In this document: in pieces, positions 4,128-50,596 of the stretch | Position numbering within the stretch: the first letter of the stretch is position 1 | Layout of the letters: the number at the start of each line of letters is the position of its first letter | DNA from: Alphaproteobacteria bacterium | GTDB taxonomy: Bacteria > Pseudomonadota > Alphaproteobacteria > SP197 | Assembly (NCBI GenBank): GCA_022823765.1 | Contig: JAJEHK010000206.1 | Location: 3,984 to 67,983, forward strand | Direction of reading: 5' to 3' | Length of the DNA stretch: 64,000 bases | Notes under the pieces: model-generated | What the model saw: only the letters and a program-made list of their open reading frames with translations | What the model was told of the DNA's origin: nothing | Databases searched by the model: none | Translations under genes and position numbers: made by a program

Positions 4128-4196
4128 ACTGTCATGCTATGAGACTGTATGCGGCGAGTAAAGCGCAACGGATGACGCGAGAGGAGGCTTCTGACA

Positions 4197-5096: not shown

Positions 5097-5128
5097 GGTC
5101 GCCTGCCTTGCGCAGCACGCGGTACCGG

Positions 5129-6259: not shown

Positions 6260-6309
6260 ACGACCGTCTCGATCGCCGGAACAGGCGGGCTTCGAAGCGT
6301 TTGTCCGTG

Positions 6310-8561: not shown

Positions 8562-9073
8562 CGCAATGCGTTCCAGTCCGGGGAAATCGAAACGATCGCG
8601 TCAATCTCGACGGTGATGTTGCCGGGCAGGGATCCCATGCCGACGGCCGTGCGCGCATGCCTGCCCCGTTCACCGAAGACGTCGCAGAACAGGTTGGAAC
8701 AACCGTCGATGACCGCCGGGTGATCAACGAAGTCGGGTCCGGCATTGACCATGCCGAAGACACGGCGGATCTGCGCGACATGCTCAAGCGAGCCAAGAAT
8801 TTCCCTTATTGCGGCGATCAGCACGAGACCGGTTCTTTGTGCGTGGTGGAACGCTTCATGGACAGGAACGTCAAGCCCGACCTTGCCGGTTGCCAGCCGG
8901 CCGCATTCCAGGACCGGCCCCTGGCCCGACAGATAGAGCGTCGTGCCGTCGATGGAGCCCAGGTCGAAGTTCCCGACAGGCGCGGGTGTCGGGGGAATGA
9001 CATGGCCGAGTTCGGCAAGCCGCCGGTCTGCGACACACTCCGGGCCAGCCGTTCCGCGTCGTTGTGTGTTCAT
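8558..9073 (-). CDS. RidA/YjgF/TdcF family protein (reactive enamine/imine deaminase)
   Basis: YjgF-type chorismate-mutase-like fold of about 170 aa. It is overlap-coupled to both neighbouring genes. Confidence 0.75.
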   Translation of the reverse strand: MNTQRRGTAGPECVADRRLAELGHVIPPTPAPVGNFDLGSIDGTTLYLSGQGPVLECGRLATGKVGLDVPVHEAFHHAQRTGLVLIAAIREILGSLEHVAQIRRVFGMVNAGPDFVDHPAVIDGCSNLFCDVFGERGRHARTAVGMGSLPGNITVEIDAIVSISPDWNALR

Positions 9074-10113: not shown

Positions 10114-10116
10114 GGT

Positions 10117-11852: not shown

Positions 11853-11937
11853 GGCGCTCTCCGGACCGGAAAGCAGGATGAACTCTCCGGAAAGATGCCC
11901 CGGATGGCAGGAAATTGCCATCCGGGGCGAGGCACAT

Positions 11938-13305
11938 TCAGTTGGCGAGCATTGTCTCGAAGTCGGTCTGGGCCGCAGCGCCGGCCTCGGCAGGGTCTGC
12001 ACCGCCGTAGATATCCTGAATCACGTCAACGATGCGCAGCGCGAACTCGCTCCAGCCGGCACGTTGCACGACCGAGGTCTGCGAGTTGGGCATGGCGGCT
12101 GCCACGGCATCGACATAGGACTGCGGGAAGCTCGCCGCGTACTCGGGATCCTGCCACGTCGACAGACGCGGTGCGCCGCCGTGCAGCTTGCCGATGGTGG
12201 TCGCGTTGGCCGTGTTCGACATGTACTGGATGAAGAGCCAACCGGCCTCGGGTGAGGCGGCGTTCTGCGGGATTCCGAAACCCCACTGCCAGTGGGCCGT
12301 GTAGGGCTCGCCCTCGGCGTTGTCGACGGGGATGACCGAGTAGCCGATCTTGCCGGCAACGAGGCTCTCGTCCGGGTTCTCGAAGCCGGGAGCGAAGAGG
12401 CTTGCGTCGATGAAGAACGCCGCGCCACCCGCCATGAAGAACTGCGAGGCATCGGGCCAGTCCATGGCCTGGATGTTGACGGGACCGGCCTTCATCAGTT
12501 CCGCATAGTTCGCGAGGCCCCGCACGATATCGGGATCGTTCATCTTCGGCTTCGACCAGTCACCGTCGAACCAGACGTTTTGCGGAGCGGAGCGGTCTGC
12601 CGCACCGACCGAATTGTTCACGAAGCCGGTGACCGTGTCGATCAGCGTGTCCGACCGGATGCCACGCAGGACGGCACCCGCGATGGCGCCCCCGCTTTCC
12701 TCCTTCACCTCGCGCGCCGCGGCGATCAGTTCTGCCATCGTTGTCGGCATCTTGCCGTCAAGATACTGGTTCACGTGATCCATGTTGGCGAACAGGATGT
12801 AGGTCTCGAACGAAGCCGGGATACCGTGGTACTCCCAACGGCCGTCGATGTCGTACGTGGTTGCATCAAGGAAGCCTGCCGGGATGTCGTCCAGATTGTA
12901 GTCGCCAGCCGTGAGATCAGGGCTGTCGATGAAGTCCTGCAAGGAATGGACGAGGCCGTTGGTGTGCTGGGTGTAGGCCGTGGAATCCATCGGCAGGAAG
13001 TAGACGTCCATCTGCGAGTTGCCGCCCGAGCCGCGCAGCGCCACTTCCATGCGGTCGAAGTAGAGATCTTCGGCCATGGTCTGCAGGGTGACGTCGATCC
13101 CGGTGTCGGCCTCGAACTGGTCGAGCACCACACGCACGCCGTCGGTGACGGGATGTTCCGGCATCATGACGGTGATCGACTCTCCCGAGAGCTGGTCCCA
13201 CGAAAAGTCGGCCGTAGCGACCGTGGCGCTGACCGCAAGGGCTACCGACGATGCGGTGACCAGCTTGGCCGCTCTGACAAGGGCTCCTCGCCGCGATGTG
13301 TTCAT
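11938..13305 (-). CDS. ABC transporter substrate-binding protein (family 1, carbohydrate type) with a twin-arginine-like signal peptide
   Basis: Start MNTSRRGALVRAAKLVTASSVALA at 13305, preceded by a GGAGG RBS with a 5-nt spacer. SBP_bac_1-like fold. Confidence 0.85.
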   Translation of the reverse strand: MNTSRRGALVRAAKLVTASSVALAVSATVATADFSWDQLSGESITVMMPEHPVTDGVRVVLDQFEADTGIDVTLQTMAEDLYFDRMEVALRGSGGNSQMDVYFLPMDSTAYTQHTNGLVHSLQDFIDSPDLTAGDYNLDDIPAGFLDATTYDIDGRWEYHGIPASFETYILFANMDHVNQYLDGKMPTTMAELIAAAREVKEESGGAIAGAVLRGIRSDTLIDTVTGFVNNSVGAADRSAPQNVWFDGDWSKPKMNDPDIVRGLANYAELMKAGPVNIQAMDWPDASQFFMAGGAAFFIDASLFAPGFENPDESLVAGKIGYSVIPVDNAEGEPYTAHWQWGFGIPQNAASPEAGWLFIQYMSNTANATTIGKLHGGAPRLSTWQDPEYAASFPQSYVDAVAAAMPNSQTSVVQRAGWSEFALRIVDVIQDIYGGADPAEAGAAAQTDFETMLAN

Positions 13306-13507
13306 CGTTTCCTCCGTATGTTCTGACAGCCTGCTGATCAGGCATTGGTCGACCGGATTTTCCAGGAACGGAAATCGGTTGACCAATTGGCGCAGATGCA
13401 CAACCATTTGTCAAACCCCGTGTTCATCGCCACGTGAGCATGACGCTGCCATTTCCGGAGAGCGTTGAGGTTTGCGCGACCGGTGGACCCATTCGAAAGG
13501 AAACGTC

Positions 13508-14200
13508 ATGTCGATGGCCTTTGATGTGACCGACCGGGTTTATCGGGAGATCCGCGATCTCCTGCGCTCTGGCGACATCCTGCCCGGCCAGCGACTGCCC
13601 AACGAGCGCAAGCTGGCCGAGATGAGGGGGGCGTCGCGCACCCAGGTGCGGGATGCGCTTCTCATGTTGCAGAAGGAGGGGCTGGTCGAACGCAAGATCG
13701 GAAGTGGCACCTACCTGTCCGAGCGGGCGCCACAGATCATCGAGCTGGCTGACGCTGCGGTCCACATGTCGCCCGAGCGCTCCCATGGCTTCCACGAGAC
13801 CCTAGAGGCGCGGCTGCTTGTCGAGCCATCGGTCGCGGCGCGTGCGGCCGAGGCGCCCACACCACAGTTCTGCAAGGATCTCGAGGCAGCACTGGAACGC
13901 ATCCTGGCGGCGCCTACCTGGCTCCAGTTCAAGGAAGACATCTACGGATTCTCACGCCTCTATTACGTGGAGGCGGGCAACGACTTCCTGTGCTGGACCT
14001 TCGATCAGATCGTGGCTGCCCGTCGCGCGAACAAGTTTGACGGCGGAAGCGACCAGGCCCCGGTGGCCAATATTGTGCGCAGGCACTTCCATGACCGCCT
14101 GTCGAAGATTGCGGATGCCATCACCTCCGGGGACCCCCAACGGGCAAGGGCCGAGGTGGAGGGTTTCCTGGTTGCCATGGCCGCTTCGCTGGCGCTCTGA
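13508..14200 (+). CDS. GntR-family transcriptional regulator (FadR/FCD subfamily), divergent from the ABC operon
   Basis: wHTH (LPNERKLAEMRGASRTQVRDALLMLQKEGLV) plus an FCD domain. Start MSMAFDV is preceded by AAGGAAA. Confidence 0.85.
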   Translation: MSMAFDVTDRVYREIRDLLRSGDILPGQRLPNERKLAEMRGASRTQVRDALLMLQKEGLVERKIGSGTYLSERAPQIIELADAAVHMSPERSHGFHETLEARLLVEPSVAARAAEAPTPQFCKDLEAALERILAAPTWLQFKEDIYGFSRLYYVEAGNDFLCWTFDQIVAARRANKFDGGSDQAPVANIVRRHFHDRLSKIADAITSGDPQRARAEVEGFLVAMAASLAL

Positions 14201-14578
14201 TCAGGGGTCTCGTGACAGGCCTTCGGCTTCGAGGCGATCGAGGTAGGCCTGCCAGACACTGTCCCGGTTGCAGCCGAGTTCGTGAAGATAGTTCCACGAG
14301 TAGATGCCGGTATCGTGCAGATCGTCGAAAGTGATGCGTATGGCGTAGTTGCCGACGGGCTCCACCGACATGATGCCGACATGGCGACGGCCGGGAACGG
14401 TCTTCCTCTGGCCCGCGCCATGGCCCTGGACCTCGGCCGAGGGGCTTTCGACACGCAGCAGTTCGGCCGGCAACGTGACGGAGGTGCCGTCATCAAAGTC
14501 GATCTCGAGAGCCTTCTGCTGCGACTTAAGGCGGATCTCGACAGGCCGGTGGCGGCTGGCACGGGCCTCGCCCTTCAC
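14201..14578 (-). CDS. DUF971 (gamma-butyrobetaine hydroxylase-like N-terminal domain) protein
   Basis: [22 protein letters not shown] motif. Confidence 0.7.
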
Positions 14579-14766
14579 GTCTCCTCTCCATCGAGGCGGC
14601 GCGCCTCGTCGACCAGCATGATCGGGATGCCGTCCCGGATGGGATAGGCGAGGCCCGCTTCAGCGCTCACCAGTTCCTGGCGCTCGCGATCCAGGGTGAG
14701 CGGTCCCTTGGTCAGCGAACAGACCAGGATCTCGAGAAGCCGGGGATCGACGTCGGTTTCACTCAT
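14575..14766 (-). CDS. Trm112/YcaR (UPF0434) family small protein
   Basis: [23 protein letters not shown]...DGIPIML, typical Trm112-like protein of about 63 aa. Confidence 0.7.
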
Positions 14767-15107
14767 CGCGTTGGCCCCTCCCAAGTACGCCTCGTGATGT
14801 CCAACTTAGTCTCCATCACTCCTGACGTGCACCCCGCGAGACAGGTGGGCCTTGAACGAGCCCGACCGGTTGCGCGGTTTGCCTGTTTCCATCAGCCAGC
14901 CGTGGTCCGAAGATTTCTACTCGACTCGGCCGCCTTGCTGCAATGGCGAATGGAGGCCATGGCAATACCCTGCCACATCGAGTCGGGAATGAGTTCGACG
15001 CCCTCGCGGTGCGTCTGCATGAGAGGCGTGTCGCCAATGGCCGGCGGCGCAGCACGATGGAAACCGAACTGGTGGGCGGTCACTGTCTGGTCGCGTTGGT
15101 TGCGGGG

Positions 15108-15518
15108 TTACGGGTCCGTGCCGGAAAGAGTCCAGTCCTCGCAAACGAGTCCCTCGACGCGTTCGAACTCCCGGCTGTTGGCGGTGACCAGCACCAGTTT
15201 GCGAGCGCGGGCCTGCCCGGCGATCAACAAGTCATGAGGGCCAATCGGAAGCCCTTTCGCATCAAGCTCGCTGCGCACAGCGCCTGCTGCGCGTGCATCG
15301 CCAGCATCGAATGGAACGATCTCGAACTCCAGTCGGTCCAGCAACCCGAGATTGCGGTCTGCATGTTGGCTCTTGTGGGCGCCGTAGTAGAGCTCATAGG
15401 CGACCGGGGCAGGTAGTCCGATATCCGCAGGCCGGAGGCGGCGCAGGCGCATACGAAGCTGCGGCGATGTGTCGTTGAGCAAAGCAATGCAGGCGTTGGT
15501 ATCGAACAGGTAGCGCAT
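15108..15518 (-). CDS. vapC: PIN-domain toxin VapC
   Basis: N-terminal MRYLFDTNACIALL with conserved acidic PIN residues. ATGA overlap with the upstream antitoxin. Confidence 0.8.
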   Translation of the reverse strand: MRYLFDTNACIALLNDTSPQLRMRLRRLRPADIGLPAPVAYELYYGAHKSQHADRNLGLLDRLEFEIVPFDAGDARAAGAVRSELDAKGLPIGPHDLLIAGQARARKLVLVTANSREFERVEGLVCEDWTLSGTDP

Positions 15519-15766
15519 CAGTCGAAAACGCTGTCGAGATGCGTTCGCGATGGCAGTTCCGGCTGGTTGCGGCCTGCGGCGAAGAAATCACTTGAGAATT
15601 CGCCTGCCACGGCATCGAGCCACTCCCAGTCCGACGCAACGGGTTCAAGGATTACTGCTGCGCCCTGCCTGCGGATGCGGACTTCGGCGCCCTTCATCCG
15701 GAATTCCTTGGGAAGCCGCACCGCCTGAGAGCGGCCCGACCAGAAGAGTTTGGCCGTTCTGGACAT
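15518..15766 (-). CDS. vapB: Antitoxin VapB (AbrB/MazE/SpoVT family)
   Basis: MSRTAKLFWSGRSQAVRLPKEFRM swapped-hairpin motif. Start at 15766 is chosen rather than the longer track ORF. Confidence 0.75.
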   Translation of the reverse strand: MSRTAKLFWSGRSQAVRLPKEFRMKGAEVRIRRQGAAVILEPVASDWEWLDAVAGEFSSDFFAAGRNQPELPSRTHLDSVFD

Positions 15767-17603: not shown

Positions 17604-18671
17604 CTATTCCGCTGCCTTCATGAAGGCGCGTGAATTCGGGAAGGCCGGCATCACTTCGTCGATGAACAGGCGCAACGAGGACTTCTGCAGTTCGAACGTC
17701 GGGCCGGTCACGCGATAGAGGAAATTGTCAACACCAAGGGCCTCGTAGCGGCGCAGCTTGGCGATCACCTCGTCGGGCGTGCCGAAGACGAGGTTGGTGC
17801 GCAGCATCTGGGGATCGTATTCGGCGACATTGTCGAGCGAGGCAAGATCGACCGCCTCGACAAAGCCATTCTTCACCTCGCCCAGTTGCTTGAACAGGTT
17901 CTCGAACTGCACACCGCTCCTTTGCACCGCCTCGACAAAGGGCTGCCAGCCGTGTTCGGAGTCCTGGTAAACGGCGGCATGGCGCATGGTCAGGAAGCGC
18001 GGCCTCGGGATCTCCGGAACCCGCGCCAGCGCATCCTCGAACTGTTGCCTGTACTTCTCGACCTCGCTGAAGGGACGGGTCAGCGCCCAGGACATGATGT
18101 TGCACCCCTGGGTGAGGGCCCAGTCGTAGGTCGAGGGATGGCGCGCCGCGACCCACAGGGGGGGATGGGGCTTCTGCAACGGCTTGGGACAGGCGGTCGC
18201 TGAAGGGAAGGACCAGAATTCGCCGCAGTGCTCATGATCGCCGGCCCACAGGCCCTTGAGCACCGGCAGCATCTCCTGCATGTAGGCGACCCCCTTGTGC
18301 TGGTCCATGCCTCCCATCATGCGGTCGAATTCACGCTGATAGGCGCCGCGACCGATACCGAACTCCACCCGTCCACCCGACATGAGATCGAGCAGGCCGA
18401 CTTCTCCGGCCACCTTGATAGGGTGCCAGTAGGGAGCCTGGACCACGGCGATTCCGAGGCGGATCTGGTCGGTGTTGGCGCCGAACCATGCGAGCAGCTG
18501 GAAGGGGTTGGGCGCAATCGTCATCTCGATCGCATGGTGTTCGGCAGCCCAGACGATCTCGAATCCCCCCGACTCGGCCATCTGCACCATGTCCATGGCG
18601 TGGCGGGCGACATCCCGCATGTCGATCGACGGGTTGTCGCGGGCAAGATCGATCGAAAGACTGAATTTCAT
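17604..18671 (-). CDS. LLM-class flavin-dependent oxidoreductase (luciferase-like monooxygenase)
   Basis: Luciferase-like TIM-barrel sequence features across 355 aa. Confidence 0.75.
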   Translation of the reverse strand: MKFSLSIDLARDNPSIDMRDVARHAMDMVQMAESGGFEIVWAAEHHAIEMTIAPNPFQLLAWFGANTDQIRLGIAVVQAPYWHPIKVAGEVGLLDLMSGGRVEFGIGRGAYQREFDRMMGGMDQHKGVAYMQEMLPVLKGLWAGDHEHCGEFWSFPSATACPKPLQKPHPPLWVAARHPSTYDWALTQGCNIMSWALTRPFSEVEKYRQQFEDALARVPEIPRPRFLTMRHAAVYQDSEHGWQPFVEAVQRSGVQFENLFKQLGEVKNGFVEAVDLASLDNVAEYDPQMLRTNLVFGTPDEVIAKLRRYEALGVDNFLYRVTGPTFELQKSSLRLFIDEVMPAFPNSRAFMKAAE

Positions 18672-18769
18672 GACGCCTACCCCTTGTCGTTGACACCGGA
18701 TTCTACGCGAGGATCGATCCCGGTGATATCGCGATGGCGAGGGACGCCCCGGCGCCCCTTGCCCGGACC

Positions 18770-19654
18770 TCAGGCCGCAGCGAGCCCGAGTTTCTGGCGC
18801 GCTTCGGCCGCGCCGACGACCCGCCCGCCCATCATCTCGATGATCCCGGCCGCCTTCTCGACCAGCTGGCCGTTGGTCGCCAGCACCCCGCGCTTCAGAT
18901 AGAGGTTGTCCTCGAGGCCGACCCGGACATTGCCACCCAGCAGCATGGCCTGGGCAACCATGGGCATCTGCATCCGGCTGATGCCGAAGCCCGCCCAGTT
19001 GGCTCCCTGGGGCAGGCAGTCCGCCATCGTCATCATGGAGCGCGTGTCCGCCCCCGCACCCCAGGGAATGCCGAGGCAGACCTGGAAGAGGGGCGGGTCC
19101 TCGATGAGTCCCTCGTCATACATGGCGCATGCGAGACGAACCTGGCCGAGATCGAACACCTCGATCTCCGGCTTGACCCCCATCTCGCGGATGTTCGACG
19201 CCATGGTGCGGCACCAGGACGCCGGGTTGACGTAGGTCTCGTTGCCGTCACCGAAGTTGATGGTGCCGCAATCGAGAGAGCAGATCTCCGGGCGCAGACG
19301 ATCGACATGGCGCAGCCGTTCGAGGGGGCCGACGATGTCACTTCCAGGACCGGGGCGGGACGGATTGTCGTCATCAAGGTTGAAGTCGCCGCCCATGCCC
19401 GCTGTCAGGTTGAGAATCACGTCGACGCCATCCTTGCGGACCAGGTTGACGGTCTCCTCGAACAGGTCGGGATCGCGCGAGCCCTTGCCGGTCTCGGGAT
19501 CACGCACGTGGATATGGGTGACCGCGGCGCCCGCATGGGCCGCCTCGATCGCCGCATCGGCGATCTGGCGCGGGGTCACCGGAACCTTGTCGCTCCGCGA
19601 AACCGTATCCCCGGCGCCGGTGACGGCGCAGGTGATGATGACGTCCGTGTTCAT
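18770..19654 (-). CDS. BKACE family enzyme (3-keto-5-aminohexanoate cleavage / dehydrocarnitine cleavage enzyme-like, DUF849)
   Basis: [18 protein letters not shown]-terminus and an overall TIM barrel typical of the BKACE family. Confidence 0.8.
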
Positions 19655-19689
19655 GAATGTTCCTCCAGGTCAATGAATGGGCTGAATGG

Positions 19690-20643
19690 TCAGAAACCGG
19701 CCTCGCGGCGGGCCTTCAGAACTCCGACAAGTCCCTCGTTCATCTTCGCCGACAGCGTCCGGAAGTCCTCTCCCGGGGCGGCCGCATCACAGCCGTCGAT
19801 GAGGCGGCGAGCAAGATCATCGGTGAGTTCAGGCGCATCAAGGCGACTCCACGGAAACTTCAGTGCCGGCCCGAACTGCTCCAGGCAATAGGCCATGCCA
19901 CCTTCGCCGCCGCCGACATGGAACACCATGCACGGTCCCATGAGGGCCCAGCGCGGTCCGGGACCATTGGTCACCGCCGTGTCGATCTGCTCCACCGTCG
20001 CCTCTCCGGCCGCGATCATGTGCAGGGCCTCGCGCCAGATCGCTTCCTGCAGCCGCGTGGCGATGAATCCGGGAACCTCGCGATCCATGACAAGGGGGGC
20101 CTTGCCGACGTGGCGAAAGAACTCTGCCGTCCAGGCCACCGCGTCCGGATCCGTCCGGCGGCCAGCGACGATCTCGACCAGAGGCATGAGATAGGGCGGA
20201 TTGAAGGGGTGGCCGGTGACCGTGCGCTCCGGCGACGGACAGAGCGCCTGGATGTCGCTCATGGAAAGACCCGAGGTCGAGGAACACAGGACGACGTCCG
20301 GTGGCGCCAGACGGCCGAGATCGGCGTAGACTGCCTGCTTCACCTCGAGGATTTCCGGAACGCTCTCCTGCACGAAGTCGGCCCCGGCTACTGCTGCCGC
20401 CAGATCGGTGGTGACATGCAACTGCCCGGGCGATGCGCCCTCTGTTGTTCCGAGCTGTTCCAGGGAGCTCCAGGCCGTCGCCACCAGGGAGCGGAGTTTC
20501 TCCTCTTCCTCCGCCTCGAGAACCCATGACGTCACGTCATGGCCCGTCGCCAGGAAGAACGCCGCCCACCCGGCGCCGATCGGCCCGGCGCCGAGGCAGG
20601 TGACGGCCGAGACGTCCTGTGGCTGTGGCCGGCCCATCGTCAT
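19690..20643 (-). CDS. 3-hydroxyacyl-CoA dehydrogenase family protein, L-carnitine dehydrogenase (LcdH)-like
   Basis: Rossmann motif CLGAGPIGAGWAAFF plus a C-terminal 3HCDH domain. BKACE partners are typically this type of dehydrogenase. Confidence 0.75.
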   Translation of the reverse strand: MTMGRPQPQDVSAVTCLGAGPIGAGWAAFFLATGHDVTSWVLEAEEEEKLRSLVATAWSSLEQLGTTEGASPGQLHVTTDLAAAVAGADFVQESVPEILEVKQAVYADLGRLAPPDVVLCSSTSGLSMSDIQALCPSPERTVTGHPFNPPYLMPLVEIVAGRRTDPDAVAWTAEFFRHVGKAPLVMDREVPGFIATRLQEAIWREALHMIAAGEATVEQIDTAVTNGPGPRWALMGPCMVFHVGGGEGGMAYCLEQFGPALKFPWSRLDAPELTDDLARRLIDGCDAAAPGEDFRTLSAKMNEGLVGVLKARREAGF

Positions 20644-21440
20644 CTGCCCAGGAAAACCGGCTGACGCCGTTCAACGAAGGCGCTGATGCCTTCCTGAGCG
20701 TCATCGGAGGCCAGCATCCGCCGGTAGAGGGGGAGGTCGGCCGAGCGCATGGTCCTGAAGGCGCCCTCGACGGTCTCGCCCTCGATGGCCCGAAGCACTT
20801 CCTTGACCGCGCCCAGTGCCAGTGGCGCGCCGGTGGCGAGGCGTTCGCCCCAGTGGCGGGCCTTCGCCATGAGCTGGGCGGCCGGGACGACAGCGTTCAC
20901 CAGTCCCAGCTGCCGTGCCTCGTCGGCCTTCATGCGGCGGCCGAGCAGCAGCATTTCCATGGCGACATTGGTTGGCAGGCGCCGTGGCAGGCGTTGCAGG
21001 GCTCCGGCATCCGGGACAATGCCAAGGGGGAGTTCGGGCAGGGCAAACTCCACGTGGTCGGCAGCTATGACGAGGTCGCAGGCGAGCGCAATCTCGAATC
21101 CGCCGCCGATGGCATGGCCGTTGAGGGCGGCGATCACCGGTTTGTCGAGATTCCACATCTCCGTGATGCCGGCGAATCCGCCAAGCGAGGCGTCTTCCGT
21201 TTCCCACCAGTTGTCCAACTGCTGATCGCCGCTCTCGAGAGCCTTGAGGTCCCAGCCAGCCGAAAACAGGCGGTCTCCGGACGCCGTGAGAATCGCCGCC
21301 CTGAGGTCGGGATCATCACGAAAGGCGACGAAGGCCTCCCCCATGAGGCGGCTCGTGGCGCGGTCGATGGCGTTGACCTTCGGCCGGTCGATCGTGATTT
21401 CCAGCAGCCTTCCGCGCCGCTCGACACCAATTCCTGCCAT
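20640..21440 (-). CDS. Enoyl-CoA hydratase/isomerase (crotonase) family protein
   Basis: Crotonase fold with the oxyanion region ALNGHAIGGGFEIALACD. Confidence 0.85.
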   Translation of the reverse strand: MAGIGVERRGRLLEITIDRPKVNAIDRATSRLMGEAFVAFRDDPDLRAAILTASGDRLFSAGWDLKALESGDQQLDNWWETEDASLGGFAGITEMWNLDKPVIAALNGHAIGGGFEIALACDLVIAADHVEFALPELPLGIVPDAGALQRLPRRLPTNVAMEMLLLGRRMKADEARQLGLVNAVVPAAQLMAKARHWGERLATGAPLALGAVKEVLRAIEGETVEGAFRTMRSADLPLYRRMLASDDAQEGISAFVERRQPVFLGR

Positions 21441-22183
21441 CAGATCAGCCGGGCCGGCGTATAGGAGGCACGGGCGGTGCCGATGGCCTCGGCAAGATCG
21501 AGGCGGCCCAGGAAAAGCGCCCTGCCGATGATGCAGCCGCCGATGTTCGGCAGGTACTTCAGCATCGAGACATCGTCGATGCTGGTGACCGTACCGCTCG
21601 AGATCACCGGCACATCGAGAACCTCACCCATGCGCATGGTCCGGGCAAGACTGTAGTCCCTTGGTTCCTTGTCGCGGTCGAGATCGACAAAGACGATTTC
21701 CGAGATACCGGCCTCCACCAGGCTCTTCGCCATTTCCGTCGCCGGAAAGGCGGTTTCCTCTCGCCACCCCTCGATGACCACCATGCCGTTGCGCGCCGCC
21801 ACGGTGGCAATGATACGGTCGGGGTAGGCCGTGCAGGCGTCGGTGACGAGGTGCCGGTCCTTGACCGCCGCCGTCCCCAGGCCCACGCGCCAGGCGCCAT
21901 GCTCGAACCACCAGTGCACGGACCCGATGGAGCGGATGCCGCCTGCAACCTGGACCGGAATGGCAACGCTGTCGATGATCCGGCAGATCTGCTCGGCGTT
22001 GTGTCGCCCGCCCTGGAGTGTCCCGTCGACATCCACCACGTGGAGACAGTCCGCTCCGGCGTCGGCGAACTTGCGGGCGGCATCCTCCGGGGAGAGATCG
22101 AAGGGTTCGGGAGTTTCGTGGCGGCCATCCACGCGATTGACCGCCTTGCCTCCCATGATTTCGATTGTGGGGTAGATTTTCAT
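21440..22183 (-). CDS. HisA/HisF-family (ProFAR isomerase-like) TIM-barrel protein, outside any his operon context
   Basis: MKIYPTIEIMGGKAV, VQVAGGIRS, SSGTVTSIDDV and GCIIGRALF align to the HisA motifs IPALDL.DG, VQVGGGVRS, SGGIG..DDV and GVIVGRAL. Confidence 0.7.
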   Translation of the reverse strand: MKIYPTIEIMGGKAVNRVDGRHETPEPFDLSPEDAARKFADAGADCLHVVDVDGTLQGGRHNAEQICRIIDSVAIPVQVAGGIRSIGSVHWWFEHGAWRVGLGTAAVKDRHLVTDACTAYPDRIIATVAARNGMVVIEGWREETAFPATEMAKSLVEAGISEIVFVDLDRDKEPRDYSLARTMRMGEVLDVPVISSGTVTSIDDVSMLKYLPNIGGCIIGRALFLGRLDLAEAIGTARASYTPARLI

Positions 22184-22241
22184 GGTCTCGAACCGCATCC
22201 GGCTGGCGCCATCATAGGCGAGAATCGCCTCCCGGCGCGAC

Positions 22242-22643
22242 TCAGGATGTCTCGTCGAGTGGCCTGAACGCGATGACCTCGATCTCGACGCGAACATCGA
22301 CCAGAAACTCGGAGATGAGCGCAGAGCGGGCCGGCGGTTCCTCGGGAAAGTACTCCGCATAGACGGCGTTGAATCCGGGAAAGTCTGCGCGATCCGACAG
22401 CCACACCATGGCCTTTACCACGTCGCCAAGAGTGCAGCCCGCTTCCGTCAGGGTCTCGCGGATCGCCTCGATGACGACCCGGGTCTGATCCTCGATGGTG
22501 CCATGGGTCATCGGCTTTCCGTCCTCAAGGGGGACCTGGCCGGTCAGGAACACGAAGTCCCCGGCCCGGATGGCGCGGGAAAGCGACAGGACCCGCCCGC
22601 CGATCGAGAGCGGCCCGCCGATCACCTGTTTCGTCGTCGTCAT
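22242..22643 (-). CDS. RidA/YjgF family protein
   Basis: Start MTTTKQVIGG, a typical RidA of about 133 aa. Confidence 0.75.
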   Translation of the reverse strand: MTTTKQVIGGPLSIGGRVLSLSRAIRAGDFVFLTGQVPLEDGKPMTHGTIEDQTRVVIEAIRETLTEAGCTLGDVVKAMVWLSDRADFPGFNAVYAEYFPEEPPARSALISEFLVDVRVEIEVIAFRPLDETS

Positions 22644-22746
22644 CTTCACAGGTCTCCCCTGGTGTGGTGCGTGACACTGTGGGGAGTTGCGTTCCATGTG
22701 CAAGCCTGTGTTGAATGACCGGCGTCAAGGAAGGGGACCGGGGACC

Positions 22747-24231
22747 ATGGAAGAACTCAGGCACTACCGCATGCTGATCGACGGCGCATGGGTCGATTCC
22801 GGGGACGGCGGCACCTTCGACAGCATCAATCCGGCGACCGGCAAGGCCTGGGCCACGGTCGCCGCCGCCACCGCGGACGATGTCGACCGGGCCGTAAGGG
22901 CGGCACATCGCGCCTTCACCAGTGGTCCCTGGGCAACCATGCTGCCGACCCAGCGGGGCCGCCTGTTGCGCAATCTTGCCGGCCTGCTGGCCGAGCGTTC
23001 GGAGGACCTGGGCCGGACCGAGTGCATCGACACCGGAAAGATGTTCAAGGAGACGCGCTGGCAGGCGCGCTACATCGCCGAGTTCTTTCATTTCTACGCG
23101 GGCCTTGCCGACAAGGTAACCGGCGAGACCCTGCCCATCGACCGCCATGACATGCTGACCATCACCACGCGCGAACCCCTGGGCGTCGTGGCCGCCGTCG
23201 TGCCGTGGAACAGCCAGCTCTTTCTCGTCGCGGTGAAGATCGGACCGGCGCTTGCAGCCGGCAACACCGTTGTCCTGAAGGCCAGCGAACACGCCTCGGC
23301 CGCCATGCTGGAGTTTGCCGAACTCGCCATGGAGGCCGGATTCCCGCCCGGCGTGGTCAACGTCGTCACCGGCCATGGCGAACCGTGCGGACGCACTCTG
23401 ACCACCCACCCCCTGGTGGCGCGCATCAGTTTCACGGGCGGACCGGCGACGGCCCGTCATGTCGTCAGGAATTCCGCCGACAATTTCGCCGAAGTCTCCC
23501 TCGAGCTGGGAGGCAAGTCTCCCGTCGTCGTGTTCGGCGATGCCGACATCGAGAGTGCTGTCAACGGTTCCCTTGCCGGCATCTTCGGCGCCAGCGGACA
23601 GAGCTGCGTCGCCGGCAGCCGGATCTATCTCCACGAGTCGATTCACGATGCCTTCATCGACCGCCTGGTGGAACGGACCGGTGACATCCGCATCGGCGAC
23701 CCCCTGGCCGAGGAGACCCAGATGGGGCCGCTCTGCACCATGGCCCAGCTCGAGGGGTGCGAGCGCCAGGTGGCCCGCGCCGTGGAGGAAGGGGGCGCCC
23801 TGCTCACCGGCGGCAAGCGTCCGGACCATCCCGATACCGGCTGGTACTTCGAACCGACCATCGTGTCCTGCCCGGACCAGTCCATGGAGATTGTCGATAC
23901 CGAGATGTTCGGGCCGGTGCTCTCGGTGCTGCGCTTCAGCGAGGAAGACGAGGTGGTCGCCATGGCAAACGACACGCGCTACGGGCTGGCGGCCGGAGTC
24001 TTCACGCGGGACCTTGCCCGTGCCTTGCGTGTCCAGAAACGGATTCGCGCCGGAATCGTGTGGGTCAACACCTACCGCGTGGTGTCGCCCATCGCCGAAT
24101 TCGGCGGCTTCAAGGACTCAGGCTACGGGCGCGAATCGGGCGCCCAGGCAATCTACGACTATACCCGGCCCAAGACCGTGTGGATCAACACGTCTGATGA
24201 GCCGATGGACAACCCCTTCATCATGCGATAG
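22747..24231 (+). CDS. NAD(P)-dependent aldehyde dehydrogenase
   Basis: ALDH motifs ELGGKSP and FGASGQSCVAGSR (catalytic Cys) over 494 aa. Confidence 0.9.
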   Translation: MEELRHYRMLIDGAWVDSGDGGTFDSINPATGKAWATVAAATADDVDRAVRAAHRAFTSGPWATMLPTQRGRLLRNLAGLLAERSEDLGRTECIDTGKMFKETRWQARYIAEFFHFYAGLADKVTGETLPIDRHDMLTITTREPLGVVAAVVPWNSQLFLVAVKIGPALAAGNTVVLKASEHASAAMLEFAELAMEAGFPPGVVNVVTGHGEPCGRTLTTHPLVARISFTGGPATARHVVRNSADNFAEVSLELGGKSPVVVFGDADIESAVNGSLAGIFGASGQSCVAGSRIYLHESIHDAFIDRLVERTGDIRIGDPLAEETQMGPLCTMAQLEGCERQVARAVEEGGALLTGGKRPDHPDTGWYFEPTIVSCPDQSMEIVDTEMFGPVLSVLRFSEEDEVVAMANDTRYGLAAGVFTRDLARALRVQKRIRAGIVWVNTYRVVSPIAEFGGFKDSGYGRESGAQAIYDYTRPKTVWINTSDEPMDNPFIMR

Positions 24232-24242
24232 GCGCGCGAACC

Positions 24243-25694
24243 ATGGCCATCGTCATCACCAGCCGCAACGACCTCACTCTGGAAAACGCCCGGCGTGTGG
24301 CCTGGGAACGGGAGGGCGTCGAGATCGGCGCCGAGGCCCTGGCCGCCATGGAAGCAGGCCGCGAGAGGCTGATGCGCATCCTCGAGCATGACCCCGACGT
24401 CACCATCTACGGGGTCACGACCGGTGCCGGCCAGATGGCCAGGCAGAAGATCAGGCCGGAGGATCGCAGCAGCCACGCCCGCATGTCACCGACCGGCGCT
24501 GCCGCATCGTGGGGCGATCCCCTGCCCGACCGGGTGGTGCGTCTCATCATCCTCGCGCGCCTCACCAATTTCATAGAGGGTCACGCGGCCGTCTCCCCCG
24601 AGATTGCCCAGGGCGTTGCGTCAATGCTCTCGCAGGAAAGCGTGCCCGTGATCCCGGCGCGGGGCCAGGGAGGCGCCGGCGAGATTCTCTCGCTCAGCCA
24701 TCTTTTCGCACCACTCGTCCAATCGGTCGGGGCCGATGTCAAGGATGTCATGTGCCTCGTCAATGGGTCGCCGTCGGCAACCGGCCTCGTCACCGATGCC
24801 GCACTGACGGCCGAAGCCCGCCTCGATCTCGCAGCCCGGGTCATCGCACTGTCGTTCGAGGCGTTCAACGCGCCCCTCGGCCACCTCGCCGGAGCTCTGG
24901 AGGACTACTGGAACAATCCCTGCGATGCCTGGGCCCTGAGGACCATGCGGACACTCATCGACGGTGGCCATGGTGGCAGCCGCCGACCCTATCAGGCCCC
25001 GGTGAGCTACCGTATCGCGCCACGCATGCTCGGTCAGGCCCGGCGTGCCGTCGACCTGGCACGTGACGTGGCCGGTGAATCTCTCCGGGCCGTGACCGAC
25101 AATCCGGTGTGGATCGATGAACGCGACGAGGACCATCCCTTCGGACAGTTCGTGTCGACCGGCGGATACCACAATCCCCACGCGGTTCTCGCCATGGATG
25201 CCTTGACGGCGACATGCGCCAATCTCTGCGTCCTTGCCGAACGTCACGGCGCCAAGTTGCTTGACGGTCATGTCTCCCTGCTGCCCGACCAGCTGATCGA
25301 CCCCGACCGGGAAGGCGGCATCCGCCGGGGATACATGGGATGCCTGCCCATGGCGCAGACCGGCTATGAGGAAGAGGCCCGATATCATGCCCAGGCCACC
25401 CTGCTTCCGGGCAGCGAGTCGGGAGGATTCGGACAGAATGACGTGGCGAGTCCGGTGTTTCTCGCCTGGACCAAGCTGCAGCGCGCCAGTGAATGCCTCG
25501 ATCTCGCGCTCGCCAGTCTCGCGCCCATTGCCGTGAGGGCCCTGGACGTTACCGGACGCCGGGTCCCCGGACCGCTGAGCGGGATTGAAGAAACCGTGCG
25601 CGACGCGTTCCCGAACCTGGAGGAACGGCGCGCCTTCGGCCCCCTGGTGGCCGACGTCGCCACGGCGTTCCGCACCACCATTCATCCTTCCTGA
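24243..25694 (+). CDS. Aromatic amino acid lyase (HAL/PAL) family protein with a non-canonical MIO region (Gly-Ala-Gly in place of Ala-Ser-Gly)
   Basis: Overall HAL fold. The segment QGGAGEILSLSHLFAPL aligns to the HAL motif GSVGASGDLAPLAHMA, so the MIO-forming Ser is replaced by Ala. Confidence 0.65.
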   Translation: MAIVITSRNDLTLENARRVAWEREGVEIGAEALAAMEAGRERLMRILEHDPDVTIYGVTTGAGQMARQKIRPEDRSSHARMSPTGAAASWGDPLPDRVVRLIILARLTNFIEGHAAVSPEIAQGVASMLSQESVPVIPARGQGGAGEILSLSHLFAPLVQSVGADVKDVMCLVNGSPSATGLVTDAALTAEARLDLAARVIALSFEAFNAPLGHLAGALEDYWNNPCDAWALRTMRTLIDGGHGGSRRPYQAPVSYRIAPRMLGQARRAVDLARDVAGESLRAVTDNPVWIDERDEDHPFGQFVSTGGYHNPHAVLAMDALTATCANLCVLAERHGAKLLDGHVSLLPDQLIDPDREGGIRRGYMGCLPMAQTGYEEEARYHAQATLLPGSESGGFGQNDVASPVFLAWTKLQRASECLDLALASLAPIAVRALDVTGRRVPGPLSGIEETVRDAFPNLEERRAFGPLVADVATAFRTTIHPS

Positions 25695-29494: not shown

Positions 29495-30484
29495 TCAGCT
29501 GTCCTGATGATGCGATGCAAGCGTGGCGCACATTCTTGCGAGTCGCCGGCGGAGGCGCACGGGCTTCTCGATGGTGACCGTCTCGCCCCAGGTTACGAGA
29601 TGCCAGCAGATCTCGTCGAGACCGCCGGCCTCGAAGCGCACCGTGACCGTGCCGTCCCGGTTCTTCTCCACGGTCTGATCTGGATGGAAGAGAAACGCCA
29701 TTGCGTCGGGCGCGGCGGCGGCGTTGAAGTGGAGGACGACCCGGACGGGCCTTTCCTGGAAGGTGCCGAAGGAGCGCCGGGCATAGCGCTGCAGATCGAA
29801 CGCCGGGTCGCGTTCGAACCGTTCTTCGAGCAGCCTGGCATCGCTGATGCCGGTGAGGCGCCAGAGCCGCGGTTCTTGCGCGCGGTCTTTCCGGGCAACG
29901 AGGAACGCGCGGTTGCCGTAGATCAGGCCGCAGGGCTCCACGCGTTGAAGACTGGTCTCGCCGGTCGAGCGCGCCCGGTAGCTGTATCCGACCATGCGGC
30001 GTGTCAGGAGCGCCTCGCGCAGGAGCGCAAGAAGATCGGCATCGACCGGCTGCCTCGGGGCTGGCCGCATGGCCAGCCCCTCGACCTGCATCAGGGCTTC
30101 GAGATCGGCCTCTCGTCCCCCCGGGGCTGCATTGCCCCGGGCGGCGCGCAGCTTGGTGTCGATGTCCCTCAACCTGGCCGCCTGTTCCCGCAAGCCGGTC
30201 CGTTCAAGGGCCATGGCGGCGGTGCCGAGCGCCGACAGTTCCTCGGCGTTTACCCGCAGCAGGCGACGCAGATCTCCCGATTGCAGCCGCCAGTGCAACC
30301 TCGTGTCGTCCACAGGCACGGTCTCCAGAGGTCCGAAGGCCGATTCGACGGCATCGCGCAATCGCTCGGCGGTCCGGCGGCTGACCGACAGGTCCTGCTC
30401 GATCTCCTGGAGTGTCACGCCGGCACGCGACCCCTGAAGCCGGATGGCCAGGCGCATGATGTCCTTCAGGCGCTCGTATCTCAT
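29495..30484 (-). CDS. WYL-domain transcriptional regulator (N-terminal HTH plus WYL plus C-terminal WCX-like domain)
   Basis: HTH GVTLQEIEQDLSVSRRTAERLRDAV and a central WYL-like segment (MVGYSYRARSTGETSLQRVEPCGLIY). Confidence 0.75.
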   Translation of the reverse strand: MRYERLKDIMRLAIRLQGSRAGVTLQEIEQDLSVSRRTAERLRDAVESAFGPLETVPVDDTRLHWRLQSGDLRRLLRVNAEELSALGTAAMALERTGLREQAARLRDIDTKLRAARGNAAPGGREADLEALMQVEGLAMRPAPRQPVDADLLALLREALLTRRMVGYSYRARSTGETSLQRVEPCGLIYGNRAFLVARKDRAQEPRLWRLTGISDARLLEERFERDPAFDLQRYARRSFGTFQERPVRVVLHFNAAAAPDAMAFLFHPDQTVEKNRDGTVTVRFEAGGLDEICWHLVTWGETVTIEKPVRLRRRLARMCATLASHHQDS

Positions 30485-30544: not shown

Positions 30545-32659
30545 TCAAGCAGAACTGCTACGGCCGAAACCGATGGGATACGGACGGTCCGGCTTGGCTG
30601 CGCACTCGGCGCGCAGCATCTCCACAAGGGCTTCCGCATCGTGCAGGACACCCAGGATCTCGGCCCGGTTGCGCACCACGGCAAAGTCGCCGGGCGTGAG
30701 GGCCGCGAGATCCGAGAGAGAAGGCGGCGGCGCCAGATCGAAAGAGCTGCGGAAGGCCACGTCGGCCATTTCGGGGGTGAGATAGTCGAGCTTCACCTTG
30801 AAGACGAAGCGGCGCAACGTCGCCGGATCGAGACGGTCTGCGAAATTGGTCGTGCAGGCAAAAGGCAGGGGATGGCTTTCCATCCAGGTCAGCATCTCGT
30901 TGACCTGACTCACCTCCCAGTTGCGGTTGGCGAAACGCCGGTCCGCAAGAAGGGAATCCGCCTCGTCGAAGACCAGGAACGCGCCAGCATCGCGCGCCTC
31001 GGCGAAGGCACGGGCGATCATCTTCTCGGTCCCGCCTACCCACATGGACACGAGATCGGAGGCCCGCTTCTGCACGACCTCGAGGCCGAGCCTCTCAGCG
31101 AGGTAGCGGACATAGGCGCTCTTGCCGGTCCCCGGAGGACCCTGAAGGCAGAGGGAAAACCGCCTGCGCTTCTCCGCCGCGAGACGCTCCGCGAGAACCG
31201 ACGGGTCGGTGTCGGCCCGGATGAGAGCAGGATCGAACCCGGCCGGGGCCCGCTGGGGCGGCCTGTCGCAGGAAAGCAGTCGGGCCAGGCTGCGAACCCC
31301 CGTGCGAACCGCGGCGATGTCGCTTCCGGCGAGGCAGGCGGCCGCGGTGGCGCCGGCCGCAATTCCCGGAGTGGCGTCGAACTCCGAGGCCAGGGCGGTC
31401 ACCTCTTCCGGTGCGGCAGCGATATCGTGACGGTCGAGCTGTCGTGCCCAGACCCGGGCCCGTACGGCCGTTGTCGGCGGACGCAGTTCGAGGGCAAACA
31501 TCATGCGGCGCAGGATGGCGCGACTGACCCCGTCCGTGTCGTTTATGGTCCACAACGTCGGAGCCGGAGCCTGCTCGAGCAACCGGTGCATGAAGACCTT
31601 CGAGGCGGCTCCCCGGGAACGGGAGGACCGCATCGATCCGAACAGTCCGAAGTTCCCGAAGGAGTCTTCGAGCAGGTCGTCCATCTCGTCGAACATGAGG
31701 AGTGAACGGCCGTCGTTGGCGATCAGGCGTTGCGCCAGCTTGAGTTCCTGGAGTCTCTCCAGGCGTGAGGGCTCGTCGCCGTCGTCGTCTGCCTCGCCGA
31801 CACTGTAGAGCGCAGCGCCGAGCCGGGCCGCGAGCGCCTTGCAGAATTCCGTCTTGCCGGTGCCCGGCGGCCCGTAGAGCAGCACGTTCACCCCCGCCGT
31901 GCCGCCGGCAAGTGCGCCGCGCAGGAGTTTCTCGACATGGTCACGGTCACGGGCGACATGGCTGAAGTCCGTCCATTCGAGTTCAGCCGGCGGTGCGACG
32001 CTGAGCAGCAGACCGGTGACATCGATGCGCCCAGAGCCGGGCACGGTGACAAGGCGGCGGAGACGGGGCGGGATGACAAGATCGCCGTCATCGTCGATCG
32101 AGACGAGGCCTGAACGAACCAGGGGTGCGCCGCTCTGCAGGCGGGACTGGATCGTTCGAGCGGTCATGCCGAGCATCAGGGACACCGTCCATCCACGCTG
32201 ATTGAGCGCGCTCATGCGCAATCCGGGAGTCTCGAAGATATCGTCGATCATGGACTCGAACACAGCATGGGTCTCATAACGCAGAATCAGTTCGAGAATG
32301 CCGAGATCCGTTCCATTCAATCCTGCCGTGGCCCCGAGCTGCCGCAGGCGCAAGCTGGTGCGATCCCGTCTCGCCCGGCTGTTCACACGTTCCGTTCGCA
32401 GGTCTTCCGCGATACCGCGCAACGTCCTCGTGGTGACGTTCGCCTCGTCAAGAACCTGCCCGCGGCGGCGTCTTCGACCCCGTCTTCCTGCTCCCGATCC
32501 GATGCGTTGTTCCCGGTCGCCGATCCAGTCGACCAGTGCCCGGGCCTCGGGGTCCCGGTCTGTCAGGCCCGAGGCGATGTTGGCGAGATACGTGGTGAGC
32601 AGTCTTGTCTCGTAGGCGGTCAGCATGTCTCCCTCCCCATTGGCATTTTGGAGAGACAC
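30545..32659 (-). CDS. Tandem AAA+ ATPase (two classic AAA domains, each with GPPGTGKT Walker A) with a ~230-aa N-terminal domain of unknown function
   Basis: D1 has VLLYGPPGTGKTEF and LLMFDEMDD. D2 has LCLQGPPGTGKSAY, SMWVGGTEKMIARAF and FLVFDEADSL. An alternative start at 32626 is possible. Confidence 0.75.
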   Translation of the reverse strand: MSLQNANGEGDMLTAYETRLLTTYLANIASGLTDRDPEARALVDWIGDREQRIGSGAGRRGRRRRRGQVLDEANVTTRTLRGIAEDLRTERVNSRARRDRTSLRLRQLGATAGLNGTDLGILELILRYETHAVFESMIDDIFETPGLRMSALNQRGWTVSLMLGMTARTIQSRLQSGAPLVRSGLVSIDDDGDLVIPPRLRRLVTVPGSGRIDVTGLLLSVAPPAELEWTDFSHVARDRDHVEKLLRGALAGGTAGVNVLLYGPPGTGKTEFCKALAARLGAALYSVGEADDDGDEPSRLERLQELKLAQRLIANDGRSLLMFDEMDDLLEDSFGNFGLFGSMRSSRSRGAASKVFMHRLLEQAPAPTLWTINDTDGVSRAILRRMMFALELRPPTTAVRARVWARQLDRHDIAAAPEEVTALASEFDATPGIAAGATAAACLAGSDIAAVRTGVRSLARLLSCDRPPQRAPAGFDPALIRADTDPSVLAERLAAEKRRRFSLCLQGPPGTGKSAYVRYLAERLGLEVVQKRASDLVSMWVGGTEKMIARAFAEARDAGAFLVFDEADSLLADRRFANRNWEVSQVNEMLTWMESHPLPFACTTNFADRLDPATLRRFVFKVKLDYLTPEMADVAFRSSFDLAPPPSLSDLAALTPGDFAVVRNRAEILGVLHDAEALVEMLRAECAAKPDRPYPIGFGRSSSA

Positions 32660-50586: not shown

Positions 50587-50596
50587 GGCAGGACCG

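Follow-up and report, generated by a model that had tools for sequence, protein, structure and literature searches.

A 64,000-nucleotide stretch of alphaproteobacterial DNA (contig JAJEHK010000206.1 of assembly GCA_022823765.1, analysed here as a whole and referred to as the window) contains at 17604-25694 a cluster of eight genes that is probably a compact island for the catabolism of betaines (quaternary amines), in which a known core is joined by a conserved accessory module and two lineage-specific additions. The core trio encodes a CaiD-like enoyl-CoA hydratase (ECH), an LcdH-like dehydrogenase with the 3-hydroxyacyl-CoA dehydrogenase fold (HCDH) and an enzyme for beta-keto acid cleavage (BKACE); the accessory genes encode a luciferase-like flavin-dependent oxygenase component (LLM), an aldehyde dehydrogenase (ALDH) and a RidA-family protein; and the additions are a HisA paralogue and a homologue of histidine ammonia-lyase (HAL) that lacks the residues forming the 4-methylideneimidazol-5-one (MIO) group. 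The core and accessory genes together make up a conserved unit, with a carnitine-type core and a Tgn-type accessory module, and the repeated co-occurrence of their families in many unrelated contigs puts the grouping of these six of the eight genes beyond what chance would give. An earlier note on this DNA, made from the sequence alone, had proposed a single novel pathway of eight genes; our comparative neighbourhood analysis supports this only in part, in that the six families co-occur across distant taxa whereas the assemblage of eight is not conserved as a whole, the HAL homologue adjoining the cluster only in ten close relatives and the HisA paralogue being restricted to a few related lineages. 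The core is already known in kind, and what appears to be new is its combination with the conserved LLM, ALDH and RidA genes and with the lineage-specific HisA and HAL additions.

All eight genes are present at the positions and on the strands first listed, as judged from open reading frame (ORF) listings and Pfam scans, and every gene call of the earlier note proved correct. Six are transcribed from the minus strand in the order RidA, HisA-like, ECH, HCDH, BKACE and LLM, and the ALDH and HAL-like genes are on the plus strand. Overlapping stop and start codons join the HisA-like gene to ECH (TGATG) and ECH to HCDH (ATGA), and the ALDH and HAL-like genes are separated by 11 bp; these overlaps and short gaps support an organization into operons. 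The 103 bp spacer between the divergent RidA and ALDH genes (22644-22746) is presumed to be a bidirectional promoter region; a consensus promoter scan gave no match in this spacer, and promoter and terminator scans are uninformative at the 65% G+C of the region. There is no regulator or transporter gene within the cluster itself, which is flanked by housekeeping genes, for a thioredoxin-TPR protein and one with a Lon N-terminal domain at one end and for HtpG at the other.

The carnitine-type core

The BKACE gene (18770-19654, minus strand; PF05853, 322 bits) encodes a protein with the fold, Zn ligands and catalytic residues of an active cleavage enzyme. Alignment with Kce (2Y7D), with which it shares all of these features, places the Zn ligands at H47, H49 and E248 and the catalytic residues at E163/E165, R244 and D249, and both sets are invariant in eight relatives. 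The protein is 62-84% identical to BKACEs in extended clusters that also contain ECH, HCDH, acyl-CoA dehydrogenase (ACAD) and ligase genes, and 56% identical to those of the canonical carnitine operons of A. fabrum pAT and P. denitrificans. The adjacent gene (19690-20643, minus strand; PF02737 and PF00725) codes for a 317-aa LcdH-like, NAD-dependent 3-hydroxy-acid dehydrogenase, whose orthologues at 57-73% identity adjoin ECH and BKACE genes and whose nearest solved structures use free acids and not CoA esters. Its context is that of an L-carnitine dehydrogenase, with BKACE adjacent and with regulator or transporter and betaine genes in orthologous loci. The third member of the trio, a 266-aa crotonase (20640-21440, minus strand; PF00378, 228 bits), has crotonobetainyl-CoA hydratase CaiD (NF002936) as its best NCBIfam match, at 307 bits against a cut-off of 500, and is 66% identical to the product of a P. 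marina gene named carnitinyl-CoA dehydratase by PGAP/RefSeq. The proposal that the LcdH-like enzyme and BKACE act as a dehydrogenase and cleavage pair on a cationic beta-hydroxy acid is supported.

For comparison we used the best 120 of 8000 scored environmental matches to BKACE (68-97% identity), and the compared loci, mostly metagenomic contigs together with some plasmids, are designated by L-numbers. The gene order ECH-HCDH(-x-)BKACE recurs in these contigs, with orthologues 60-84% identical to the window proteins, or 57-84% when plasmids of cultured bacteria are counted with them. The trio adjoins genes for an ACAD and an ADP-forming acyl-CoA synthetase in L088/L089, L090, L142, L152, L153 and L170, and the same combination of trio, ACAD and ligase is found on plasmids of the cultured bacteria Parasedimentitalea marina (pW43B) and Aminobacter sp. 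SR38 (pSR3). Genes of the glycine-betaine demethylation type (sarcosine oxidase, Rieske, DgcA-like and GCV_T/DAO) are repeated neighbours of the trio. In L088/L089 there are Rieske oxygenases and a DgcA-like flavoprotein together with an AraC/GlxA regulator and an OpuAC ABC transporter, in L082 a Rieske oxygenase and subunits of sarcosine oxidase are encoded upstream, and DAO and GCV_T genes are present in L177.

The two plasmids provide the fullest arrangement, with a left arm of AA_synth, CoA-transferase or flavin reductase, alpha/beta hydrolase and RidA genes, and a divergent right arm of ALDH, LLM, ECH and HCDH followed by a GlxA regulator, BKACE, an ABC transporter, ACAD and a member of the acetate-CoA ligase family. 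A GlxA/AraC regulator adjoins the BKACE gene in these full clusters, and likewise in the canonical carnitine operons of A. fabrum pAT and P. denitrificans, which consist of GlxA, BKACE, a binding protein, a 'carnitine 3-dehydrogenase', ABC transporter genes and a hydrolase. A stand-alone GAF-domain protein of ~175 aa is encoded between HCDH and BKACE in several loci (L082 11339-11872; L087 9408-9935; L093 and L097-L099) and is absent from the window cluster.

Bazire and colleagues are said to have described in 2019 how S. meliloti converts gamma-butyrobetaine to carnitine and then to glycine betaine, reportedly with BcoAB, BcoC and a hydratase followed by an LcdH-thioesterase and a BKACE. The window trio shares with this route, and with cdhCAB-lcdH of P. 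aeruginosa, the adjacency of LcdH-like and BKACE genes and a CaiD-like hydratase, and its orthologous loci further share the ACAD, the ADP-forming CoA ligase, the GlxA/AraC regulator and the glycine-betaine demethylation genes. BcoAB of S. meliloti makes gamma-butyrobetainyl-CoA, and LcdH and BKACE are reported to take carnitine through dehydrocarnitine to betainyl-CoA. From orthology and context we infer that the trio is a carnitine-type module. The earlier note did not recognize the assemblage as a described pathway; this fails for the core, which matches the set for gamma-butyrobetaine and carnitine conversion to glycine betaine, and stands for the combination of modules, in that no description of LLM, RidA and ALDH genes combined with BKACE genes was found in the literature searched.

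The accessory module

The LLM gene (17604-18671, minus strand; PF00296, 185 bits) encodes a 355-aa protein whose nearest solved structure is LuxA, the alpha subunit of bacterial luciferase. A LysR regulator and a flavin reductase are often encoded upstream of LLM genes, the reductase for example in L087 and L116, and the likeness to LuxA fits a predicted role as an FMNH2-dependent two-component oxygenase. The ALDH (22747-24231, plus strand; 494 aa; PF00171, 566 bits) is TgnC-like and betaine-aldehyde-dehydrogenase-like, with betaine-aldehyde dehydrogenase as its best NCBIfam match (514 bits with a cut-off of 669), and it is 72-79% identical to the ALDHs of L087, P. marina and Aminobacter and 55% identical to that of an operon on S. 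meliloti pSymA. The 133-aa RidA protein (22242-22643, minus strand; PF01042, 93 bits with a threshold of 27) scores 89.6 bits against the Rid family TIGR00004, below the cut-off of 106.25, and is 69% identical to RidA of P. marina, where the divergent arrangement is alike.

An alignment scan of metagenomes with LLM recovered 80 loci at 55-96% identity, and 27 of these have at least 3 kb of flanking sequence on both sides. ALDH is the commonest neighbour in these 27 loci (17/27), followed by RidA (9/27), a trio gene (8/27) and ACAD (6/27), and only a single locus, from the window's own clade, has the HisA-like and HAL genes beside LLM. The divergent RidA/ALDH pair recurs in L087, L108, L131, L145, L152-154, L157, L170 and L178, and its conservation with LLM and the trio extends to marine and soil metagenomes and to plasmids of cultured bacteria. 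The two divergent arms are thus linked, contrary to the possibility raised in the earlier note that they are unrelated operons.

More distant homologues of LLM are found in plasmid-borne operons of two types. The window LLM is 55-57% identical to the LLMs of the Parasedimentitalea and Aminobacter clusters, 49% to that of an A. fabrum pAT operon, and 40% to that of the S. meliloti pSymA operon. At about 50% identity, Agrobacterium and Rhizobium have a flavin reductase-ALDH-LLM-hydrolase-CMD-AA_synth operon (CMD, carboxymuconolactone-decarboxylase family) beside ProXVW, and at about 40% there is the pSymA operon, GntR-AA_synth-hydrolase-flavin reductase-LLM-ALDH...SSADH (SSADH, succinate-semialdehyde dehydrogenase), a tier that also includes an Acinetobacter baumannii record. 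The former constitutes a second Tgn-like operon, flavin reductase-ALDH-LLM-hydrolase-CMD-(NIPSNAP)-AA_synth, present in L175 (A. fabrum C58 pAT, 6466-12255) and L176 (Rhizobium binae p6). This operon differs from the pSymA type and is closer to the window LLM, and in C58 it has ProXVW as its neighbour.

The five-gene pSymA operon we take to be the trigonelline (tgn/trc) set, a system reportedly described by Perchat and colleagues in 2018. The window LLM and ALDH have homologues in the pSymA operon, itself regarded as homologous to the TgnA-F system of Acinetobacter baylyi, in which TgnB is a luciferase-like monooxygenase; across the module, identity to the pSymA proteins is 40-43% for LLM and 54-56% for ALDH. 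All five pSymA families also occur in the full clusters of Aminobacter and P. marina; in the Aminobacter pSR3 cluster they are 42% (LLM), 54% (ALDH), 61% (AA_synth), 40% (reductase) and 30% (hydrolase) identical. The window differs in having LLM and ALDH alone of the five, with RidA added, and in that its genes are fused into a carnitine-type operon with no succinate-semialdehyde dehydrogenase following, and the identities are too low to assume the same substrate. The LLM, ALDH and RidA genes accordingly resemble a Tgn-type module for oxidative cleavage to which RidA has been added, and we infer this role from their sequences.

Two further observations concern neighbours of the LLM and ALDH genes in other loci. 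A serine hydrolase of the beta-lactamase fold and a PotD-like binding protein are encoded beside them in some clusters (L087 1412-3706 and L110; L171 17170-18297), and the hydrolase is a candidate for the missing esterase or thioesterase of the pathway. Two known systems were considered and set aside. The Rut pyrimidine pathway also uses an LLM, a RidA protein, a hydrolase and a flavin reductase, but the window RidA scores only 62 bits against RutC (cut-off 169) and there is no RutB or RutE, such that the likeness is one of chemical analogy only. The homarine hom operon has a different gene set, in which HomA is an FAD-binding protein and HomC a peptidase.

The HisA paralogue

The HisA-like gene (21440-22183, minus strand; PF00977, 174 bits) begins at MKIYP, which gives a product of 247 aa as in its homologues, the 306-aa ORF being too long. 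The protein scores 185 bits against the HisA equivalog (cut-off 243), and its homologues range from 94% down to about 44% identity, beyond which true HisA proteins appear at 33-42%. Alignment with solved HisA and PriA structures shows that the full-length His_biosynth (beta-alpha)8 barrel and the phosphate-binding motifs GGIR and GRAL are retained, whereas the catalytic positions are altered: the beta1 residue is Glu in 59/60 paralogues and Asp in 54/55 HisA proteins, the beta5 Asp is replaced by Ala in the subgroup containing the window protein, and none of the paralogues keeps the Gly of the beta6 'DG' motif. These residues, together with a location outside a his operon, rule out that this is the real hisA gene of the organism.

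The paralogue is linked to cluster genes in four contexts, as RidA-HisA-like-ECH in the window clade, HisA-like/LysR/ECH-HCDH-GAF-BKACE-LLM in L082, HisA-like-HCDH-BKACE in L177, and with ALDH/RidA 3 kb away in L178. It also occurs in unlinked contexts, namely gcvTHP-HisA-like-aminotransferase (L083/84) and MurJ/HisA-like-methyltransferase (L085/86), and its association with cluster genes is seen only in a few related uncultured Alphaproteobacteria. The HisA paralogue is therefore a lineage-restricted, recurrent and non-obligatory partner of the cluster. Some members of the family are fused to a glyoxalase/VOC domain (PF00903), including P0158 (374 aa) and P0163 (412 aa), and these fusions may hint at the chemistry of the paralogue. 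About 1 kb from the paralogue in L178, a 60-kb metagenomic contig from a related alphaproteobacterium, is a gene (11688-15533) for a 1281-aa protein with Cas13a endoribonuclease domains.

The MIO-less HAL homologue

The last gene of the plus-strand arm (24243-25694; PF00221, 219 bits over two stretches) encodes a 483-aa member of the HAL/PAL family, PAL being phenylalanine ammonia-lyase. The position of the MIO triad is occupied by G-A-G (GQGGAGEILSLSH) instead of Ala-Ser-Gly, and the motif GQGGAGEILSLSHLF is invariant in 12 diverse relatives with identities down to 59%, confirming the MIO-less state that had been noticed earlier. The catalytic Tyr (TIYGVTTG) is retained. Against HutH the protein scores 156 bits, with a cut-off of 539, and it lacks the triad of an ammonia-lyase. 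MIO-less members of this family are described in recent work as trimethylammonia-lyases (ergothionase and histidine betaine lyases), which strictly need a trimethylammonium leaving group, and the presence of GAG in place of ASG suggests that the window homologue is probably a trimethylammonia-lyase, of the histidine-betaine type as far as its sequence indicates.

It has in common with the described trimethylammonia-lyases (ergothionase; Swoo_3913; SO_3057/SO_3299) the PF00221 fold, the absence of the triad and the conserved Tyr. The imidazole-contacting His of HAL, in our reading of the alignment, corresponds to Ala in the window protein, which unlike those enzymes appears to be cytoplasmic and to have no flavocytochrome partner. 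Similarity to T. denticola ergothionase is limited to the N-terminal third (E = 1.8e-9), and the protein is closer to HAL and tyrosine aminomutase, for which reason we regard it as belonging to an independent MIO-less clade in which MIO was probably lost independently.

There are 1682 matches to the HAL homologue in the protein database, the best 105 of which are 66-96% identical at full coverage. A genome collection yielded 167 loci, and the 80 of these that were analysed are nearly all metagenome-assembled genomes (MAGs), mostly of Alphaproteobacteria, several with bin names that suggest sponge metagenomes. An exact-sequence search with the window protein matched a single 3.2-kb metagenome contig. 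When all of the cluster proteins were used in tblastn searches, the remaining cluster was found beside the HAL gene in only 10 close relatives (at least 83% identity), in which the housekeeping flanks are syntenic too. ORF clustering of 64 more distant loci revealed no neighbour family in more than nine loci and no recurrent cluster partner, and among 62 immediate neighbours scanned with Pfam only urocanase, OpuAC, SoxG and CMD recur, each three to four times. The HAL homologue is thus a separately evolving lyase that is joined to the ALDH operon only in the clade of the window.

In six distant loci (L046, L052, L026, L055, L057 and L059; ~8170-9990) a urocanase homologue is encoded directly upstream of the HAL gene, and in four Hyphomicrobiales-type MAGs (L071, L072, L076 and L068) a CMD gene precedes it, with a stop/start overlap between the two in L071 and L076. 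The two arrangements are alternative two-gene operons of one lyase family.

Proposed functions and their alternatives

In the betaine-catabolism reading, the CaiD-like hydratase would convert crotonobetainyl-CoA to carnitinyl-CoA, the LcdH-like dehydrogenase would oxidize L-carnitine in its free form, or a closely similar cationic beta-hydroxy acid, to give the 3-keto acid, and the Zn-dependent BKACE would use acetyl-CoA to cleave the latter into acetoacetate and betainyl-CoA. Glycine betaine would be demethylated by the Rieske, DAO and GCV_T products encoded elsewhere in the window, and the ligase, ACAD and thioesterase of a gamma-butyrobetaine branch would be encoded outside the window, unless that branch is absent. 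The LLM would most likely carry out an FMNH2-dependent oxidative cleavage of a C-N or C-C bond in a cationic nitrogen compound, with RidA disposing of an imine or enamine and ALDH then turning the aldehyde into an acid. The HisA paralogue, presumably translationally coupled to the hydratase, would be a recruited (beta-alpha)8 enzyme, and the HAL homologue, presumably co-transcribed with ALDH in the window clade only, most likely releases trimethylamine by elimination from an amino acid of the histidine-betaine type that carries an alpha-N-trimethyl group.

Several observations weigh against this interpretation. None of the cluster proteins reaches an NCBIfam equivalog cut-off, the best sub-threshold matches being to L-carnitine dehydrogenase, crotonobetainyl-CoA hydratase, betaine-aldehyde dehydrogenase, Kce and HisA; the dehydrogenase, for example, scores 294 and 272 bits against the L-carnitine dehydrogenase models NF005471 (cut-off 414) and NF005716 (cut-off 592). 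It is only 38% identical to the 484-aa protein of A. fabrum that PGAP names carnitine 3-dehydrogenase, and is a single-domain protein without the thioesterase domain of that enzyme. The BKACE substrate loop is TGAGD where the BKACEs of canonical carnitine operons have TGSGQ, and the trio thus appears by sequence to be a distinct subfamily, marked by this loop and by the single-domain dehydrogenase. The extended clusters of P. marina and Aminobacter carry a PotD-like and not an OpuAC binding protein, and together with the TGAGD loop this suggests that the true substrate of the core may be an analogue of carnitine and not carnitine itself. The window is also without the thioesterase, flavin reductase, alpha/beta hydrolase and AA_synth of the full clusters, and tblastn searches with the P. 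marina proteins found no match to the ligase, ACAD or hydrolases in its 64 kb. Of the Bco set of ligase, ACAD, hydratase and thioesterase, which is complete in orthologous loci, it therefore has the hydratase alone, and with the ligase and ACAD gone the hydratase has no obvious source of substrate. The LLM, ALDH, RidA, HisA-like and HAL-like genes are extras relative to the carnitine route, and in P. marina and Aminobacter the ALDH, LLM, ECH and HCDH genes are closely packed on one strand, divergent from RidA, an arrangement that speaks for the 'accessory' genes having their part in the core pathway itself.

The strongest alternative is that all of the conserved genes belong to one undescribed pathway for some other cationic nitrogen compound, with carnitine and gamma-butyrobetaine not being physiological substrates and the window holding a reduced version. 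The LLM with its flavin reductase, RidA, the hydrolase and ALDH would open or dealkylate an imported compound to yield a carboxylic acid, on which the ligase, ACAD, ECH, HCDH and BKACE would then carry out activation, desaturation, hydration, oxidation and cleavage. The spacing of the ALDH-LLM-ECH-HCDH run in P. marina, in which genes are 19-26 bp apart or overlap, the PotD-like ABC transporter embedded in the cluster, the separation of the trio subfamily from canonical carnitine operons, the presence of all five Tgn-type families with the trio in Aminobacter, and the failure to find the combination described in the literature searched are all in its favour. However, LLM occurs with the trio in just ~30% of the adequately flanked loci and often with ALDH alone, the trio is found without LLM, ALDH or RidA in L088-L090 and L177, showing that the modules can work separately, and the glycine-betaine demethylation genes repeatedly beside the trio are as expected if glycine betaine is the product. 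We consider this account rather unlikely.

A broader version of it, which joins three readings and which we advance only tentatively, is that one widespread undescribed pathway is encoded by a supercluster of a Tgn-like oxygenase, RidA, hydrolase and ALDH with the ligase, ACAD, ECH, HCDH, BKACE and a PotD-like transporter, as seen in Parasedimentitalea, Aminobacter and many metagenomes from sea and soil, acting on some abundant cationic nitrogen compound other than carnitine and trigonelline; that a HisA-derived barrel with rewired catalytic residues was recruited as a new enzyme in sponge-type Alphaproteobacteria; and that the MIO-less HAL clade is a new trimethylammonia-lyase with a substrate of its own. 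Such a supercluster may also occur in Burkholderia, for which a BKACE match was seen.

A primary-amine route for polyamines or omega-amino acids, in which RidA deals with an amino-aldehyde or cyclic imine, ALDH oxidizes it, the omega-amino acid is turned into a beta-keto amino acid and BKACE cleaves the latter in the manner of Kce during lysine fermentation, seems improbable. Kce is the best model for BKACE, at 241 bits, and an acidic residue, D16, lies within the loop where Kce has E14; the ALDH scores 447 bits on the aminobutyraldehyde dehydrogenase subfamily, the full clusters contain a PotD-like binding protein, and RidA fits imine chemistry. Yet the Kce equivalog cut-off of 382 bits is widely missed, the best match of the hydratase is CaiD, and the neighbours are of the methylated-amine type (sarcosine oxidase, Rieske, DgcA-like, OpuAC and GlxA regulator), with no lysine-fermentation genes nearby. 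Lysine fermentation as such was rejected on the grounds of the Kce score and the unfitting gene context.

Chance juxtaposition of eight unrelated neighbours in one lineage is the least credible account of the locus and is refuted for LLM, BKACE, HCDH, ECH, RidA and ALDH. In its favour, cluster genes accompany the HAL homologue in the window clade alone, the HisA paralogue has unrelated neighbours in L083-L086, and close relatives are syntenic even in their housekeeping flanks, so that conservation there says little. Against it, six of the eight families are found together again in distant taxa and different environments, start/stop overlaps join the HisA-like, ECH and HCDH genes, and three other independent contexts place the HisA paralogue next to HCDH-BKACE or ALDH/RidA.

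Significance

Betaines, among them carnitine and gamma-butyrobetaine, are a major currency of carbon and nitrogen both in the sea and in microbiomes associated with animals. If LLM, ALDH and RidA do act in the core pathway, the textbook route from carnitine to glycine betaine misses steps or substrates in many bacteria; if they are no more than neighbours of the core, the locus is an ordinary island for betaine catabolism. The culturable carriers Parasedimentitalea marina W43 and Aminobacter sp. SR38 make this question directly testable. The main interest of the locus lies in the conserved and unexplained link between LLM, ALDH and RidA and in its two unusual enzymes, of which the HAL clade would extend the newly recognized trimethylammonia-lyases, with relevance to trimethylamine production, and the HisA paralogue would represent a biosynthetic barrel recruited into catabolism.

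Other genes in the window

Elsewhere the window encodes a GCV_T-family aminomethyltransferase (37631-38896), a Rieske ring-hydroxylating alpha subunit that is GbcA/CntA-like by domain (47698-48861), a DAO-family FAD oxidoreductase (49219-50586) and a 515-aa sulfatase, possibly of the choline-sulfatase type (50549-52096), with a LysR regulator and MFS/EamA transporters interspersed among them. These genes are consistent with a region devoted to the use of methylated amines. A separate cluster at 2408-9073 contains a second protein of the YjgF/RidA superfamily (PF14588, 8558-9073) together with an ABC ATPase, an SBP_bac_8 binding protein, a GntR regulator, an enolase-superfamily enzyme and an SMP-30 lactonase. 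A gene for a WYL/WCX-domain regulator (29495-30484) adjoins one whose 704-aa product carries two AAA ATPase domains (30545-32659).

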